This document shows positions 1,606 through 17,381 of a stretch of 64,000 nt of DNA, piece after piece. The stretch comes from Caldisericia bacterium. GTDB taxonomy: Bacteria; Caldisericota; Caldisericia; JAAYUI01. The position numbers were made by a program, and so were the translations under genes. The DNA is taken from assembly GCA_963674785.1 (NCBI GenBank), contig OY771555.1:74511-138510 (forward strand). The letters are read 5' to 3'. Positions within the stretch are counted from its first letter, which is position 1; each line of letters starts with the position of its first letter. Below the pieces are notes generated by a model. That model made no database searches and was not told the DNA's origin. It saw only the letters and a list, made by a program, of their open reading frames with translations.

Positions 1606-3236
1606 GTGATGGGATTTAAAGGCTTTGCCAAGTCTATAGCTTTTGTTCTTGGATGTTTGATGTTTGTTTCGATAATCGGTTGTGGGAATAGTTATGTCTA
1701 CTCACCAACTCCTGACACGTACAGATGGGTAACCATTAATGGAGAGGATTACAACCCGAACTTGGATACAAATGCACCTATGTTTGAGGAGGGGAAAACA
1801 CCTGATATTATCAGTGATTTTGTTTTTAAAGGTGATACAATTTACTTTCTTATAAGAGAGGAAAACTCAAACAAATTCATCAGATGTGTAAAGTATATCG
1901 ATGGAAAGATACTCAATCTTGATGATACAAAATGGAAATCGAGTCCAACAAAACTATTTTTGTCACCTTTCAATGAAGCAAATGAACCAAGTTCATTTGC
2001 AATCGATTCAAATGGTTTTCCGCACATTGTATGGTCAGATAAACCTGAATATATAAAGACTTTGGATCACAACAAGGATATCTACTATGCGAAATGGGAT
2101 GGACAAGATTGGTACACTATCCAAGGTCAAAAAGTAAACATAGAATCTGATAATGCAAATGTTTCAAGAAATGTTGAGATTTGCTCAACATATTCGCCAA
2201 GAATTGCACTAGGTTCAAAAGATAATCCCCATATTGTTTGGCGTTCGCATAACCGTGAAAATCAATCTGAAGAATATATATATCTAAACTATCTGAAATG
2301 GGGTGGTAAAAACTGGTTAACTTCCGATGGCACCCAATACAAACCACGAAGCAACTCAGACTCAATCGTTGGGAGATTCAGCAATGCTGAAATAAGTGGT
2401 GATTATTTTTCCACATTCCCCATCATTAAGATGGATAAAGATGATAATCCTCACATTTTTGGAACTACAAAAATACAGGTAAGACAGAAGATATTGAATA
2501 CGAGTTTTATGAGAAAATGTATATCAAGTGGACAGATGAGGACGGTTGGGTTTTCAATAATGGGAACCTCTGGGATCCAACTATTCGATTTCTGAATCTC
2601 AATAACAATATCCAATCATTATTTATAACATCAGATTTTTCAATTGACAGTCATGGAGATACTTATCTTGCTTGGCTAGGTTTTTTTGATGAGTACCCAT
2701 CATTTGGCATATTTATAATCAAGAATGTCGATGGTGAATGGAGAACTTTGAATGGTGAAAAATGGGACTCCGCCAATCCAAAGAACGCACTTGTTGAATC
2801 GTTAGGACTTTATTCTGCTGATAGATATTCACTCAAATCATGTGATATTCAGATAAGCGTTGATAGAAATAACAATCTACATTTACTTCTTAGTAATGGT
2901 GAAAGCTCGAATAGAAATATTCAACAATTAGAAAACCCATGTTTGTATTATTTCAAATCTGATGGTGAAAACTGGTATTCAATCGATGGGCAAACAAATG
3001 AATCAAACATGAAGGATTTTGGCTTGATACACAGAGGCTCAATAGAAAAGGGGATGCTACAATCATACCTACTTCTAGATGATCAATATAATCCCCATAT
3101 CATATGGAGGGGAACCAGCATTAAGGAGCTAGATAATTTTAATTATATAAAAGCAATTAAGCATACTAATAACTGGAACCCAATACACCCCAAAAAAAGC
3201 ATTTGCAAAAAACAGTTATTCCTGCTATCTTGGTAA
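1606..3236 (+). pseudogene. W-rich repeat lipoprotein. Two ORFs (1606-2595 and 2517-3236) are joined by a -1 frameshift in a T5 tract at about 2456-2460.
   Basis: The N-terminus has a signal peptide plus lipobox ('SIIGCGNS'). Both ORFs carry the same repeat: 'NPHIVW...EEYIYLNYLKWGGKNW' in the first and 'EYEFYEKMYIKWTDEDGW' in the second. Frame 0 is open from 2448 and continues the repeat exactly where frame 1 loses it. One extra T in the tract would restore 'NPHIFWNYK'. Confidence 0.65.
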
Positions 3237-3257
3237 TTGGGATAGGAGGGGTATGTT

Positions 3258-3767
3258 ATGAAGATCAGTATCTTTGAACATATGAAAAGATGTAGGATTT
3301 GTGGGGAGAAGTCTAGCTACACTGTTTGTCAAAATTATGCATCGGAAACAGAGCTTCAACTCATGAGGGAGATTGAGTCAATCAACAAGAAGATTTCGGA
3401 AAATACTAAGAGACTTTTTAAGTGTAAGCTTAAATTACCAAAACTAAATCCGTATTTTATCATGGCATTTTTGCTTCTATGGTTATTCTTCACACACTCG
3501 TTCCTTTTTGCGAAATTCGTCCATGAGCCAATTGTAATGATTTTTATTGCAGCATTGTCAATTCTATTTTTGATTTTTTCAGTCTATTTCTGGATTTTCT
3601 TTCCGATGGACAACATCAAAAACGGTGTCGAGTTCATGGACGCAAAACATCAAAATCTCATCCTCAAAAGACACAGAAAATACTACCTAAAGATGCTCAA
3701 AAAAACACCTGAGAGCTGGACAAAACTCGACCTAATGAAGATAAAGTTTGAGACACTTGAGGCTTAG
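3258..3767 (+). CDS. Small membrane protein with N-terminal zinc ribbon (CxxC-x13-CxxC) plus 2 TM helices (paralogue 1)
   Basis: 'CRICGEKSSYTVCQNY', then a coiled segment, then two hydrophobic helices, then a short C-terminal domain. It has the same architecture as the adjacent gene. Confidence 0.6.
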   Translation: MKISIFEHMKRCRICGEKSSYTVCQNYASETELQLMREIESINKKISENTKRLFKCKLKLPKLNPYFIMAFLLLWLFFTHSFLFAKFVHEPIVMIFIAALSILFLIFSVYFWIFFPMDNIKNGVEFMDAKHQNLILKRHRKYYLKMLKKTPESWTKLDLMKIKFETLEA

Positions 3768-3773
3768 GGGAGG

Positions 3774-4286
3774 ATGAACATGAAGTGTAGAAAATGTAAT
3801 GAACAATCACCGTTTCCAGTTTGCCCAGAGTGTGCAAACGATCAGGAACTTGAAATAATAGAAACAATTGTCAAAATCGATGAAACCATAAGGGTCGACC
3901 GTGATCGAAAAAAGGTTCTGTTCGAGTATGTGTTCCCACTAACAAAACCAATGATCATTGCATTTATTCTCTTCGCATTAAGCATCATTACTTCGAATTA
4001 TCTAAACTCAGCCATTCTTCCAATTGTTTCAATGGTTTTAGCTGTTTCACTTTTTATTTACTCTTGGATAATCCATCTTCCGCTCAAGTCTGAAGCGATT
4101 GAAGACTACAGAGACATGAAAATCAGAATTGACCAACTCAAAAAAAGGAAAGAGTTTTTGCTTGATCTTCTAAAGAACTCGCCTGAAAAATGGTCGGAAG
4201 CTGAGCTTCAGGTTGTCAGAAGTAACATTTTTGCAGACGGTGAGGGAGGATATGATTATGATCCGATCGAGGTTTATTTGAGGTAG
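3774..4286 (+). CDS. Small membrane protein with N-terminal zinc ribbon plus 2 TM helices (paralogue 2)
   Basis: 'CRKCNEQSPFPVCPEC', then two TM helices, then a C-terminal 'SPEKWSEAELQ' that parallels 'TPESWTKLDLM' in paralogue 1. An RBS-like 'gggaggatga' lies upstream. Confidence 0.6.
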   Translation: MNMKCRKCNEQSPFPVCPECANDQELEIIETIVKIDETIRVDRDRKKVLFEYVFPLTKPMIIAFILFALSIITSNYLNSAILPIVSMVLAVSLFIYSWIIHLPLKSEAIEDYRDMKIRIDQLKKRKEFLLDLLKNSPEKWSEAELQVVRSNIFADGEGGYDYDPIEVYLR

Positions 4287-12207: not shown

Positions 12208-14699
12208 GTGCTTTTTATGAGAAAGTCATTAGTTTTAGCAGTCGTTTTTGTTTTAGTTCTTGGTTTAACACCAATCCTTGGAACGACATTTGATAGTTCA
12301 AAAAAAGACATTGTTGAGATTGGTAATGCGATAAACCTCGGTAATTTCAACGCAGATGAAGTTTTTATCCCCATCGCAACTGGTGATTACATTGTCTGGG
12401 GACAAAAGGATGTTGATGCTGTAAACCTTTATTCCTGCAACGTAAACACAAAAGAAGTTAAAAAAATAAACAGTGAGTCATTTCGCATATATACGGGACA
12501 TATCCCGCCCATATGGTCTCAGTTTCAAACGGATGGGTAGCCTATATTACTGACTCGGTGATGCTTGATGGAAAGATATGGCTCACACATGCAAATGGTG
12601 AAAACGAACCGATTATCATTTCCACAGAAAACTCTTCTCAAACTTCATACCCAGCTTTTTCGAATGGGGTTTGTTATTTCTGGCAAGAAGCAGCGGCAGA
12701 AGAAGAAACAGGGTTATATTCATACGAACCTGATACAGCGACCCGAACGCTTCTTTATTCTGATCCAGAAAGCGATTTGTTCTATCGAAAGATTTACGTT
12801 GATGATAAGTACATATTGCTTGACCAGGGAGATGGTGGAGCTTTAATACTTGATAAAATTGGTGAAAAGGTGAAAATGCTCGAACTTTTCAACAGCGAAA
12901 CTGACGATCATATACACACAAAAACATCATATATAAACCTTGCCTCTAGAAACGTTCTTTTCTATAAAAATACCTTCAAAAGAGAACCTGGAAAAAGACC
13001 AATAGAGATTAGCAAGGACTATTATATTTACGACATCAACTCTGATGAGCAGGTTAATATTGGTGCAACAGCTGATTTGGGCTCAACAGCAAACCAGGTC
13101 AGCCAAAACTCAGGTGCGTTTACATTTGTTGAGATGATTGCCTTGGATGGGCCAGTTCCAGAAAACTTTGAATGGAATCTAAATGTCTACAATCCTATTA
13201 TGAGATCTGTTCATTCTATCGACTATAATGCCCCATTTGATAGCAAAAATGACTACAGGGGAAGACTCTATTCAAGCATCTATGAAGACATGATTGTTTA
13301 TCCTTCTGGTATCGACCATGATCTTTGGCATCTAGACATATTCGACATCAACAAAAAGCTTTCGTACAGAATCACAAATGATAAAGGTGTATACCTTTAT
13401 CCAACAATAAGCGACAATAAAGTTTCGTATTTTAAAGAAAACTTTGAAGAGGGTGGTTTCAACTTGTTTTTCCACAATATCGCTACTAAAGAATCTGAAA
13501 TCAAAAACATCAAACGAGAGCTTGTTTTTGAGGATGAAGAAGAGATCACAAAAACCGAAAAGCCTATAATTTTTATTAAATCTCTTGGAAACTATCTTGT
13601 ATGGATCGAATATGATGAAGATGAAGAGATAAATGATGTATTCTCGTATGACTTTGAAACACAGGAAAAATTAGAACTGCTTTCCATTCCTGGATGGGGT
13701 ATTTTTTCTGGCTTCGCAATTCCAAAATACTTTTTTAATGAAAGCTTTTTTGTAATTGGGACCATTGAGGAAAGATCACAAATCAGTTATAGAACTGTTT
13801 CTCTAGACGGGGAAATTGATAGGATAATTGAGGATCCTAATGCAAAAAATATTGGAATTCATGACATCCAGGGTGATTATCTTTATCTTTCAAAAAGATA
13901 TGAAGACAGCAAACTGGATGGATGTTTTGAATACAATATGAGAAGTGGCAAATCTGAATTCCTGTTTGACTTTAAGGATGTTGAAAGGAACCAGTTTGGA
14001 TTTTCATACAAAACGTGGATTGACCTATACGTCCATGGAGACAAATTTCTTATTTGCGGTGACAAAAACTCGATTTTTTTAGCAAGCAGAAATGGTGAGA
14101 TTGAGAGGATTATCTGTGCAGCGGAGATGAAAACAGAACACTTTAGAACTGAAAATACTATCGAATCAATGATTGGTGACTACTTAATAATTGAATCTAA
14201 GGTGATTACTCCGAAAATACCTGGAATCGAGTATCTTGATATGTTTAATGAACAAATTGTCTCATGTGAAACATACTGTTACAATGCCGGAAATAATAGT
14301 CTTTACCAATCAAAAACGGATGCTTTCGGATTCGTACCTAGCACATACACAAACTACTGCAACCCAAACATAATTGTGACAGGTGAATACAATAACGACG
14401 ACAATAATACTTCCAAAGAGATTTCCTACAAAGCTATAGACTTATCAAAAGGTTCTGAGGTTGATCTTATAACAAGGAATTCTGCTGATTTCAGAAACAG
14501 AGTGAAATTCTTTGAGGTGGCTGGAGATATTGTCGCATTTGAAAACAATGAAGACAGTAACTACACTATCTGTGATACTCTGACCGGTAAAATGTATACA
14601 TTTGAAAATACTGTTTTAGCCCTTTCAAAAGACAGGATCATGTACCTCAAGAACCGGAAAATCCTCTCACAAAAATACTCATTTGTTATTGAAGAATAA
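12208..14699 (+). pseudogene. Secreted repeat (beta-propeller-like) protein. Two ORFs (12208-12540 and 12513-14699) are in different frames, with a frameshift near the C-rich tract around 12505-12511.
   Basis: The first ORF supplies the signal peptide ('MLFMRKSLVLAVVFVLVLGLTP'). The second begins without a signal peptide and carries repeated 'D-x-Y-[IV]-x-[WY]' units ('NGWVAYITD', 'GNYLVWIEYDE'). Frame 0 is open from 12477. Confidence 0.6.
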
Positions 14700-14765: not shown

Positions 14766-16496
14766 TTACTTCCTCAACAGGATTTTCTCAGGGTACCACT
14801 TCTGAAACCAATTTGTGAAAACAAACATTGGGACAAGAAGAACATATCGAACTATCATTAAGGCAATTGCAATTTTTGGGTAGGACATTTCAACAAGCAT
14901 TATTAGTGCTTCAAGTAAGAAGAATAAACCCCAGACAGAACTAATAATAATGTTTGTCACCAAAAAAGCATTAGACATTAAAACAGATTTGGAAAACCCT
15001 TGCCCTGAATATTCGGCAGTTAATGAGAACCTGTTTATAGATGAACCTAACCACAACGCTCCCAAGAAGACATAATCAATAACCCAGATATACATACCTA
15101 CAAAATTGAGATTTAGAGACAAGAGTACGGACATAACCACAAGATAAGCAGTTGATCCAAACTCAAACAATGTCGGTCTGTTTGTCATTGAATGATAAAG
15201 GAGGACTAGAAGTGAAAGACCGGCAGCAACAAACCTCGGCACAAGACCAGGGAACATGGAACCAAAAACCCATACAACGATCCAGGGAACAAATGCCACC
15301 TGCATCCACGTCATTCCTGAGAGGTTTATAAATCCTCTTTTGTCGGGAATCGATTTTTCATTGGATAAATCACTCATTGCGTCTTCAGGCTTATCTCCTG
15401 ATGAGGTATTGAAAGTCTTATCCATATTCATGAGATAACTCATATCACCTTCAATCTTGTAAGCACCTTTTAAGAACTCAGCTTCGCCATTTGCACATCC
15501 TTCAGATATATCCATCCACAACTTGAGAGGAGAAATAACAGTCATGTCCGGATTTGGGTGTTTTCCACTATAAGCACTTGCCTTTTTCCCATCCATTACA
15601 ATAAACCAATTTTTATCATCCAAGTCGAATTGAATAACACCGTTTGAAGACGCTGCTTTTGAAGGCACATATTGAAGAGCCATCCCTGCAAAAAAAGTAT
15701 CCATTCCGCCAGAAGATATTGACAGAGGTTTTTGTTCAATTCTATGTTCAATCGATTTTGGTTTAACTGCACCCTCTCTTGGTTGTAAAGACTTCCAATA
15801 CTGGTTTGCTGTTTCCAGGAACATTTTTACTTCTTCTTTTGTGCTAGTCGTTGCCTGAACAATCTTTTCTGCTGTATCTTTGCTAATCTTGAGATTTTCA
15901 GCAAGCTCTTGACCGGTTTTTTCTGCAAGAGAAAGGATTTCTGTAAATAACTGATCAGATCCTCTGGCAAGAGGCTCTGAGCCTGGAAGGAGAAAATGTC
16001 CTGCGAAAAGATCTCCGATTGTTGACCCATAAACCTTTTCATACCTTTTCAGAAGTGGATCGAAATGAGATCTTTCAGGGAATCCACAGACAGAGATAAG
16101 AAAAACCTTTGGGTGTGGCTTATCTCCTCTTATTGGATGACCAGTCGTATCTCCTCTAGCAACAAGATATGGCTGCACCAAAGGAAGTTGTCTATCGGTG
16201 AAGTTTTTAAAGATACCTGTAACATCATAATAATAAAGAGGGGTGGAATGAATCACCAAATCAGCATTTCTAATCTTTTCAAGTATCTCCACCATGTCAT
16301 CTTTGTGTACACACTGACCAGGTGTTTTTGTCCAACAGGTATAACATCCAATACACGGATTTATATTCTTGTCAACGAGAAAAATCTCATCTACATCGGC
16401 ACCATTTTTCTTCATCCCTCTAATAAGTCTTTCGGCAATCTTATAGGATGCGGATTTTTTCCTTCTTGGACTTCCAAGGATCACAACTGCTTTCAT
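14766..16496 (-). CDS. Three-domain fusion protein: iron-sulfur-flavoprotein-like NADPH-dependent FMN reductase, then an SCP2 lipid-binding domain, then a polytopic membrane domain
   Basis: N-terminus: 'MKAVVILGSPRRKKSASY...NPCIGCYTCWTKTPGQC' is the Isf/FMN_red motif. Middle: 'FDLDDKNWFIVMDGKKASAYSG...GCANGEAEFLKGAYKIEGDMSYLMNM' is SCP2-like. C-terminus: about 5-6 hydrophobic helices. Confidence 0.7.
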   Translation of the reverse strand: MKAVVILGSPRRKKSASYKIAERLIRGMKKNGADVDEIFLVDKNINPCIGCYTCWTKTPGQCVHKDDMVEILEKIRNADLVIHSTPLYYYDVTGIFKNFTDRQLPLVQPYLVARGDTTGHPIRGDKPHPKVFLISVCGFPERSHFDPLLKRYEKVYGSTIGDLFAGHFLLPGSEPLARGSDQLFTEILSLAEKTGQELAENLKISKDTAEKIVQATTSTKEEVKMFLETANQYWKSLQPREGAVKPKSIEHRIEQKPLSISSGGMDTFFAGMALQYVPSKAASSNGVIQFDLDDKNWFIVMDGKKASAYSGKHPNPDMTVISPLKLWMDISEGCANGEAEFLKGAYKIEGDMSYLMNMDKTFNTSSGDKPEDAMSDLSNEKSIPDKRGFINLSGMTWMQVAFVPWIVVWVFGSMFPGLVPRFVAAGLSLLVLLYHSMTNRPTLFEFGSTAYLVVMSVLLSLNLNFVGMYIWVIDYVFLGALWLGSSINRFSLTAEYSGQGFSKSVLMSNAFLVTNIIISSVWGLFFLLEALIMLVEMSYPKIAIALMIVRYVLLVPMFVFTNWFQKWYPEKILLRK

Positions 16497-16583
16497 ATAT
16501 CTCTATCTCCTTATAAGTACTGACTACTATCTAAATAATATCTGATATACCTATATAATTATTATTAATATGTATAGATATTT

Positions 16584-17162
16584 TTATTTGCTCTTTACTG
16601 CCTTCATAATAGTATATAATATATTTGTAAGTATGTTATATGTATTATTATCAAACTTACTTACTAATATATCACTTACTTCTTTATAAGCTTTATCTGA
16701 CTCATTTAATATCTTTTCTCCGCTATCAGTAAGTTTTAAGTAGTAGGAACGTCTATCTTTCTTATCATATATTCTTTCAATATATTTCTTATCTATCAAT
16801 GAATCTATGACTCTTGTAGTTTTAGCAGGATGCATTAATGTATATTCAGTTAGATCACTTGGGCGGGTCTCATCACACGCTCGCACAATAAATAGTACCT
16901 CATAGCTTTCTGTTGAAAGTCCAAAAGCATCAAAAACCCCTTTATCACCACCGCCTTTTAGTAGAGTACCTAAATGGATTAGAAGTGTTATTAATACAGC
17001 TCCTTCTCCGACCCTGTCTCTCAGTTCGATAAATCTACTATCATTCCATATATTTTCATCTGATAATTTCATGTTCAATATATTATCGGATGAAATTAAT
17101 TTGTCAATACTCGCAGATATAAAAATCTTGAAAAAGTGATCTAAATTCGTAGAATCTCCCAC
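16584..17162 (-). CDS. MarR-family transcriptional regulator. The likely start is internal, at 'MKLSDENIW' around 17072.
   Basis: '...TEYTLMHPAKTTRVIDSLIDKKYIERIYDKKDRRSYYLKLTDSGE' is the winged-helix MarR signature. Confidence 0.75.
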   Translation of the reverse strand: MGDSTNLDHFFKIFISASIDKLISSDNILNMKLSDENIWNDSRFIELRDRVGEGAVLITLLIHLGTLLKGGGDKGVFDAFGLSTESYEVLFIVRACDETRPSDLTEYTLMHPAKTTRVIDSLIDKKYIERIYDKKDRRSYYLKLTDSGEKILNESDKAYKEVSDILVSKFDNNTYNILTNILYTIMKAVKSK

Positions 17163-17381
17163 ATGGAAAATAAAAACGGATGTTCTTTGCCATTGATGAC
17201 AGGCTTTCTCGCATTTGCATCAGTGTCAATGATATTGACCGGTATATGGCACAACTCACCATCACTCCTATGGTTAGGTGTTGGTGAAGGTGTGATAGCC
17301 ATTCTCGGAGTCGTAGCGATTATCATCAAAAAAGTCAAAGCAAACAAAACTAAGACTGATTCTGTAGTTGAGTCTAAATAA
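17163..17381 (+). CDS. Small putative membrane protein (72 aa)
   Basis: The ORF has two hydrophobic segments and is divergent from marR. It may not be real. Confidence 0.3.
   Translation: MENKNGCSLPLMTGFLAFASVSMILTGIWHNSPSLLWLGVGEGVIAILGVVAIIIKKVKANKTKTDSVVESK

Follow-up and report, generated by a model that had tools for sequence, protein, structure and literature searches.

The 64,000-nucleotide window analyzed here (positions 74,511 to 138,510 of contig OY771555.1 in assembly GCA_963674785.1, from a Caldisericia bacterium) contains a gene for a MarR-family transcriptional regulator that is followed on the same strand by a gene for a three-domain flavoprotein (Table 1). The flavoprotein gene is a single uninterrupted open reading frame (ORF) of 576 codons plus stop, and its product is 100% identical to a database protein (P0001). 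From the N-terminus, the protein consists of a flavodoxin-like domain for flavin mononucleotide (FMN), an SCP2 lipid-binding domain, and an integral membrane domain.

Table 1. Features of the marR-flavoprotein locus, in coordinates of the window
Feature	Position	Strand	Evidence or remark
Three-domain flavoprotein gene	14766..16496	-	ORF list; about 40 full-coverage homologues, 35-58% identity
Cytoplasmic flavodoxin-like FMN domain, residues 1-240, including helical extension 181-237	15777..16496	-	Pfam, PDB, Foldseek
Cys motif C48-X2-C51-X2-C54-X7-C62, candidate [4Fe-4S] site	16311..16355	-	Conservation; fit to the Isf motif
SCP2 lipid-binding domain, residues ~255-365	15402..15734	-	Pfam, PDB sequence matches, AF2
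Linker, residues 366-393, ending in R387-G388 before the first membrane helix	15318..15401	-	Low pLDDT; conservation
Six-helix integral membrane domain, residues 394-576	14769..15317	-	AF2, hydrophobicity, uncurated family
Ribosome-binding site AAGGAG, 10 nucleotides before the flavoprotein ATG	16507..16512	-	Sequence; conserved in the L001 spacer
MarR-family regulator gene, 162 residues from ATG 17072	16584..17072	-	Pfam; start of the L001 orthologue
Candidate sigma-70-like promoter: TTGACA (17107-17102), 16-nucleotide spacer, TAATAT (17085-17080)	17080..17107	-	10 of 12 consensus positions
Inverted repeat 17051-17067/17082-17098, candidate MarR operator	17051..17098		17-nucleotide arms, 88% complementary, 14 nucleotides apart
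Small two-helix membrane ORF, 72 residues, divergent from marR	17163..17381	+	37% identity, E = 7e-15, to a 74-residue gene in L001

An earlier note on this DNA had read the protein as a fusion of a flavin reductase of the iron-sulfur flavoprotein (Isf) type, an SCP2 domain, and a C-terminal domain of five or six transmembrane helices, and this three-part composition is borne out by our analysis. Pfam matches were found for FMN_red over residues 1-102 (E = 1.2e-19; 70.8 bits against a cut-off of 24), for Flavodoxin_2 over residues 1-140 (47.1 bits against 27), and for SCP2 (PF02036) over residues 279-362 (46 bits against 21.3); the protein scores above the superfamily thresholds of PF03358 and PF02525. 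The C-terminal third is strongly hydrophobic, and AlphaFold2 (AF2) models six long helices there. The full-length model (predicted local distance difference test score [pLDDT] 89.7; predicted template modeling score [pTM] 0.76) is confident over the domain borders, with the exception of one short linker. The NCBIfam models for AzoR, quinone reductase, SsuE, MsuE, and PRK09739 all score far below their cut-offs, and no curated family for the whole protein or for its membrane domain was found in Pfam or NCBIfam.

Three loops of the N-terminal domain (S9-P10-R11, P86-L87-Y88, and G138-F139-P140-E141) do not vary among 19 aligned proteins and correspond to the classical FMN loops of the flavodoxin fold. 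The protein has six cysteines (48, 51, 54, 62, 137, and 334), the first four of which are invariant in the 19 full-length homologues, at 28-58% identity (alignment A1), and at least 90% conserved in alignment A3. Their spacing, C48-X2-C51-X2-C54-X7-C62, fits CX2CX2CX5-7C, the motif to which the binding of the [4Fe-4S] cluster in iron-sulfur flavoproteins is ascribed (PMC3164229). The compact Isf-type cysteine cluster pointed out in the earlier note is thus present, and the invariant CX2CX2CX7C motif probably holds a [4Fe-4S] cluster. The description of the enzyme as NADPH-dependent is not supported as stated; it repeats the name of a Pfam family, and we infer that electron flow from ferredoxin through a [4Fe-4S] cluster to FMN is at least as likely.

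The best solved relative by sequence is the flavone reductase FLR (PDB 7d38; E = 3e-11 with the single sequence, and E = 1.4e-14 over residues 4-103 with the family profile), an FMN-dependent flavone ene-reductase from Flavonifractor plautii, for which FMNH2 was supplied by the authors through a separate reductase (PMC7862272). In the alignment of 7d38 with residues 22-139 of the query, the place of the Isf motif is taken in FLR by C-X2-C-X2-C-X11-C. This subfamily may normally receive its electrons via an oxygen-labile cluster, and a lost [4Fe-4S] electron entry site is possible in FLR. The motif common to both proteins suggests a missing iron-sulfur route of electron entry, which may matter for gut flavonoid metabolism. 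A Foldseek search with the AF2 model returned AzoR, NQO1 and NQO2, and 4r81, the NAD(P)H:quinone oxidoreductase of Methanothermobacter (M. marburgensis), with E-values of about 1e-7 and target TM-scores (template modeling scores) of 0.6-0.72; no Isf structure was among the PDB matches obtained by sequence and profile search of the flavoprotein. The closest solved relatives all reduce hydrophobic aromatic compounds at FMN, which favors a lipophilic substrate for the flavoenzyme. Judged from sequence, the protein is a member of the FMN_red/Flavodoxin_2 superfamily with an Isf motif, and by its architecture it is neither an Isf nor an FLR.

The SCP2 assignment, also made earlier, is sustained by solved structures and by the model as well as by Pfam. 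PDB sequence matches include the archaeal 3cnu and 3bn8 and the mammalian 1c44 and 1qnd (profile E-values of 3.5e-13 for 3cnu and about 1e-5 for 1c44 and 1qnd), with the SCP2 domains of SCPx and MFE-2 also among the solved matches; the AF2 model has an alpha/beta fold (pLDDT about 87-95). The linker that follows is modeled at a pLDDT of 52-62, and its last two residues, R387 and G388, are nearly invariant.

In the membrane domain, the modeled helices span residues 394-414, 419-438, 443-460, 464-487, 509-538, and 540-575, with two short interfacial helices at 492-497 and 503-506; modeled on its own, the domain reaches a pLDDT of 93.1 and a pTM of 0.88. The domain has the conserved motifs FxPW...W, TNRPTLFE, LTAEYS, FxxTN, and FTxWFQKWYP and about 30 invariant positions, among them F402, P404, W405, W409, E445, W482, E495-Y496-S497, F511, T514-N515, W522, F560-T561, F564-Q565, and Y568-P569 in the 19-protein alignment. 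Conservation of the membrane domain equals that of the enzyme domain, which argues that it is more than an anchor. The nine lysine and arginine residues in the loops and at the termini are all placed on the cytoplasmic side by the prediction, with none on the opposite side, which indicates that both termini are in the cytoplasm and therefore that TNRPTLFE, LTAEYS, FxxTN, and FTxWFQKWYP lie at the cytoplasmic face, beside the soluble domains. A heme or metal site within the domain was considered and is unlikely, as there is no invariant histidine or cysteine.

Residues 394-576 have no sequence match in Pfam, NCBIfam, or the PDB, and the best Foldseek hit against the PDB has an E-value of 2.9. 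An exhaustive HMMER profile search over 1.84 billion cluster representatives (clusters at 50% identity) yielded 1664 members at E<=1e-3, of which 665 reach E<=1e-10; by this criterion the domain defines a large uncurated family. With at least 1664 clusters, a confident predicted fold, and no curated model or solved relative, it offers a well-defined object for studies of structure and function.

A word-indexed search of 5.8 billion proteins returned 454 relatives of the flavoprotein. About 40 metagenomic proteins of 566-603 residues align over 99-100% of the query at 35-58% identity; the closest named relative, 68% identical and truncated at the N-terminus, is from a metagenome-assembled genome (MAG) of Caldisericia. 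In a scan with one genome per species, at least 557 candidate stretches encode a relative (best match, 46% identical), and the fusion, which the earlier note had proposed to look for in other genomes, occurs in hundreds of species-representative genomes. Hosts were surveyed in the best 80 loci of that scan. Full-length proteins are encoded by the cultured anaerobes Desulfocucumis palustris, Heliobacterium mobile, Faecalibacterium hattorii, Oceanirhabdus seepicola, Clostridium punense, Lacrimispora defluvii, and Lancefieldella rimae ATCC 49626, and by MAGs assigned to Lachnospiraceae, Ruminococcus, Treponema, Atopobium, Anaerolineae, Crenarchaeota, and Promethearchaeota; anaerobes make up the great majority of the hosts. 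Local domain hidden Markov models (HMMs) place all three parts in one ORF at 77 of 86 loci, in many phyla and including isolate genomes. The earlier note knew of no description of this architecture, which is right insofar as no curated family or paper was found for it. It is not rare, however, and its members are already in the databases with unspecific labels such as "NAD(P)H-dependent oxidoreductase" or "multimeric flavodoxin WrbA/putative sterol carrier protein."

The strongest evidence on the role of the membrane domain comes from the company it keeps. When 263 proteins were classified with the local HMMs of the flavodoxin-like (FLAV), SCP2, and membrane (TM) domains, the membrane domain stood alone in 71, FLAV-SCP2-TM was found in 58, and TM-SCP2-FLAV-SCP2 in 41; these were followed by SCP2-TM (40), FLAV-SCP2 (25), SCP2-FLAV-SCP2 (9), FLAV-SCP2-SCP2-TM (6), and TM-SCP2 (5), with small numbers of FLAV-TM, TM-FLAV-SCP2, and other orders. 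The modules thus recur in at least ten orders and combinations, and such shuffling is evidence that they share a function. N-terminal copies of the membrane domain align with C-terminal ones and keep invariant F, N, W, and Y residues. The domain is also fused to enzymes of other kinds: to flavin adenine dinucleotide (FAD) enzymes resembling CrtI/amine oxidases (phytoene desaturases) in 11 of the 150 best representatives, to alpha/beta-hydrolases in three (P0212, P0244, and P0249), and to apolipoprotein N-acyltransferase (Lnt) in two or three, in the order SCP2-TM-LNT_N-CN_hydrolase (P0140 and P0133 among them). All of these fusion partners act on lipids or lipophilic molecules. This pattern argues that the membrane domain, usually together with SCP2, enables soluble catalytic domains to reach a substrate that resides in the membrane. 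The fusions with FAD oxidoreductases include P0163, P0181, P0184, P0199, P0210, P0223, P0232, and P0256, and those with Lnt, CrtI-like enzymes, and alpha/beta-hydrolases suggest a general lipid-access module.

A MarR gene had been claimed directly upstream on the same strand, and this is confirmed: the product scores above the Pfam cut-offs for MarR (PF01047; 33.6 bits against 24.6), MarR_2, and HTH_27, and the ORF adjoins the flavoprotein gene. No NCBIfam equivalog reaches its cut-off (the best, BilQ, scores 50 bits against 125). The ORF finder extends the gene to a GTG at 17162 (16584..17162; 192 residues); the most likely start is the ATG at 17072, because the orthologous MarR (phmmer E = 8e-55) of L001, a syntenic metagenomic locus, begins at the equivalent methionine. 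Most loci have a ligand-responsive repressor gene immediately upstream on the same strand. It is a MarR, in many cases with an overlap at the start codon, in four distinct loci besides the window: L001, L002 (on the same contig as L009), the Spirochaetales locus L007, and L008, which encodes a FLAV-SCP2 protein that lacks the membrane part and has the same MarR partner. The same upstream position is taken by a PadR-family regulator (PadR and Vir_act_alpha_C domains) in 45 of the 86 loci and by what is probably a TetR (TetR_N and TetR_C_33 match below threshold) in L003, L004, and L089. A single effector gene behind interchangeable ligand-sensing repressors points to a response induced by a small molecule, in many cases a hydrophobic one. 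Besides the regulator, no neighbor is conserved, and this is the pattern of an inducible, stand-alone detoxification gene.

The earlier note had placed a promoter and operator in the spacer between the two genes (16497-16583). The spacer is AT-rich, but no promoter-like site within it passed our scan, and the better candidate is upstream of marR. Promoter-like sites in the region number 10, against a shuffled expectation of 10.5, and no terminator-like site was found there. The candidate promoter ends 7 nucleotides before the marR ATG, and its TTGACA box and the spacing to the ATG are conserved in L001; an inverted repeat covers both the -10 box and the start codon of marR. This ATG lacks a visible Shine-Dalgarno sequence, an arrangement that is also conserved in L001 and suggests a leaderless marR transcript. 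The divergent ORF of 72 residues has its L001 counterpart in the same position and orientation; it probably encodes a real small membrane protein and possibly shares the marR control region.

We consider it somewhat probable that the locus specifies a reductase that is tethered to the membrane, is made on induction, and acts on a lipophilic, membrane-partitioning compound. Redox chemistry on such a substrate was put forward in general terms in the earlier note and is supported by the domains, the solved relatives, and the fusion partners. The two genes would form a repressor-controlled unit, marR followed by the membrane-anchored flavoenzyme, which MarR would keep off until a small ligand or an oxidant releases the promoter. 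The cytoplasmic N-terminal domain would bind FMN and probably a [4Fe-4S] cluster, and electrons would arrive either from reduced ferredoxin through the cluster or directly from NAD(P)H. The six-helix domain, embedded in the membrane with its N- and C-terminus both cytoplasmic, would present a conserved polar and aromatic site facing the cytoplasm, and the SCP2 domain between it and the enzyme would keep a hydrophobic molecule from the bilayer shielded during its reduction by the flavin. Two leading guesses as to substrate can be made by analogy. One is a quinone-like or phenolic electrophile, which would undergo a detoxifying two-electron reduction as in AzoR, NQO, and WrbA; it is suggested because it fits the fold relatives, the regulators, and the vicinal oxygen chelate (VOC) neighbors described below. 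The other is an activated C=C bond, which would undergo ene-reduction as in FLR; it is suggested because FLR is the closest sequence relative and because the membrane domain also partners CrtI-like enzymes. Should this reading be right, anaerobes ranging from sediment Caldisericia and Asgard archaea to Firmicutes and Actinobacteria of the human gut and mouth would share an inducible in-membrane reductase, which would be a candidate for unexplained activities such as the detoxification of plant phenolics or quinones or the hydrogenation of unsaturated lipids by gut and rumen bacteria. We know of no soluble quinone, azo, or ene-reductase with built-in membrane access.

A bolder version, which we regard as unlikely, is that the six-helix domain is an unrecognized, widespread lipid-portal module, usually found with SCP2, that lifts a bilayer lipid to an Isf/FLR-type reductase, to CrtI-like enzymes, to alpha/beta-hydrolases, or to Lnt, and that the three-domain protein acts in anaerobes as an ene-reductase (saturase), driven by ferredoxin, on a membrane lipid or an exogenous unsaturated lipid. 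If so, it would represent a new enzyme class for lipid hydrogenation.

Several observations weigh against the proposed membrane-tethered reductase, or against parts of it. FLR has a similar cysteine motif, yet the paper describing it makes no mention of iron-sulfur (PMC7862272), so that a cluster in the flavoprotein, although predicted, is not assured. The SCP2-TM pair occurs without a reductase in 40 representatives, for example in L005 amid toxin-antitoxin and mobile genes, and may have a function of its own. The sequence of the inverted repeat is not conserved in L001. Our literature search found no paper on the whole architecture or on the membrane domain. Many host lineages, Lachnospiraceae and Atopobium for example, often lack quinones, and this makes it less likely that a respiratory quinone of the cell's own is the substrate throughout the family.

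An alternative, which we judge improbable, is an Isf-like oxidative-stress enzyme at the membrane, in which electrons from ferredoxin would travel via [4Fe-4S] and FMN and end up on O2, H2O2, or lipid hydroperoxides; SCP2 would present peroxidized lipid, and the enzyme would protect the membrane of a strict anaerobe during exposure to air. The invariant cysteine motif stands at the position published for Isf (PMC3164229), the hosts are overwhelmingly anaerobic, and mammalian SCP2 is reported to be a carrier of lipid hydroperoxides (PMC10329676). MarR-family regulators include peroxide sensors, and the MarR of the window has a weak, sub-threshold match to OhrR (E = 0.0056); the family as a whole is dominated by PadR and TetR regulators, however, which are typical of small-molecule rather than peroxide sensing. 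Nor does the profile search of the PDB favor this alternative, since it recovered no Isf; the nearest relatives are FLR and quinone and azo reductases. Genes for oxidative stress, such as those for peroxiredoxin or rubrerythrin, are not conserved in the neighborhood.

It is similarly doubtful that the protein is a device for lipid transport or remodeling, in which the SCP2 and six-helix domains extract, flip, or deliver a lipid and the flavin domain acts as a redox sensor or regulatory subunit. Such an arrangement has a parallel in the flavodoxin-like KefF, a regulatory subunit of the KefC K+ efflux system, and it would accommodate the strong conservation of the membrane domain, its occurrence without a reductase (SCP2-TM in 40 and stand-alone TM in 71 of the 263 proteins), and its fusion to the non-redox enzymes Lnt and alpha/beta-hydrolases. 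On the other hand, the FMN loops and the four cysteines are invariant at 28-58% identity, which points to a cofactor site used in catalysis, and FLAV-SCP2 proteins without TM are also common and keep the MarR partner (L008), so that SCP2 is equally tied to the reductase. An artefact of assembly or annotation, with two or three neighboring genes joined by a frameshift (the earlier note had raised the case of two), found no support, although separate FLAV-SCP2 and SCP2-TM genes exist in other organisms. It is excluded by the same order and length in about 40 independent metagenomic proteins and by the single ORF at 77 of 86 loci, isolates included, the confident AF2 model of the domain borders also speaks against it, and we assign it a negligible probability.

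Among characterized proteins, Isf of Methanosarcina thermophila and its relatives resembles the flavoprotein in its flavodoxin-like FMN domain, in a CX2CX2CX5-7C motif about 48 residues from the N-terminus, and in its occurrence in anaerobes. Isf is a small soluble single-domain protein of about 190 residues, whereas the 576-residue flavoprotein adds a helical extension, SCP2, and six membrane helices. FLR shares a cysteine-rich loop and is an FMN enzyme that reduces the C=C bond of a hydrophobic aromatic; in contrast to the flavoprotein, it is soluble, has 310 residues, and has a substrate pocket made up of C-terminal subdomains of the protein itself (His271, Ile275, and Thr279) (7d38; PMC7862272). 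These subdomains 1 and 2 have no counterpart in the flavoprotein, where the alignment stops at about query residue 139. AzoR, NQO1 and NQO2, the WrbA-type reductases, and 4r81 resemble it in fold, in Flavodoxin_2/FMN_red membership, and in having lipophilic substrates, but they are only 13-20% identical, are soluble, and lack the cysteine motif, SCP2, and the membrane domain. In Bacillus subtilis, AzoR1 and AzoR2 are under the MarR-type repressors YodB and MhqR. UbiJ and UbiT, accessory proteins of quinone biosynthesis, and the eukaryotic lipid enzymes SCPx and MFE-2 have in common with the flavoprotein an SCP2 domain that is attached to, or works with, an enzyme for a very hydrophobic substrate; the partner enzymes differ, and none of these, to our knowledge, is fused to a flavodoxin-like reductase or to the six-helix domain described here. 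The organization of the locus, with the repressor directly upstream of the effector, often overlapping it, and nothing else conserved, is like that of detoxification modules with one effector under a PadR, MarR, or TetR repressor, such as padR-padC and lmrR-lmrCD, with the difference that the effector here is a three-domain membrane flavoprotein.

Several neighbors in individual loci deserve mention. Recurring upstream ORFs of 398 and 362 residues are, by eye, presumably an acetate kinase and a PfkB-type sugar kinase; other neighbors include a transposase, TrkH, and some spurious high-GC ORFs. Glyoxalase/VOC genes adjoin both of the TM-first homologues examined (L089, 8099-8530 on the minus strand; L090, 7923-8513 on the plus strand), an adjacency that resembles quinone/hydroquinone stress regulons and, with two loci, could be due to chance. 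In B. subtilis, the quinone-stress regulons under the MarR-type regulators MhqR and YodB pair azoreductases with VOC-type dioxygenases. Between the probable TetR gene and the three-domain gene, L003 (4531-5922) and L004 (970-2361) encode a 463-residue protein with two FMN_red-like halves, which may be a dedicated electron-transfer partner in this lineage. In L087, a 434-residue ORF overlapping the start of the FLAV-SCP2 gene (2211-3932, plus strand) is, going by its sequence, what we take to be a CrtI-type FAD oxidoreductase, and it echoes the TM-FAD oxidoreductase fusions. L008 encodes, two genes from the MarR/FLAV-SCP2 pair, a 256-residue protein (2061-2831, minus strand) with a weak TspO/MBR match.

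Within the window itself, a 728-residue ORF (12513-14699, plus strand) runs convergently to the flavoprotein gene; it matches no Pfam family at E<=0.1. Upstream of marR, the segment 17374-20040 (minus strand) encodes a TehB/TPMT-like methyltransferase (203 residues), a 225-residue membrane protein without a Pfam match, and a 458-residue protein with a C-terminal CGSC motif (a thioredoxin-like CxxC). Genes of like size occur in the same order in L001, where matching Pfam domains are confined to the methyltransferase.

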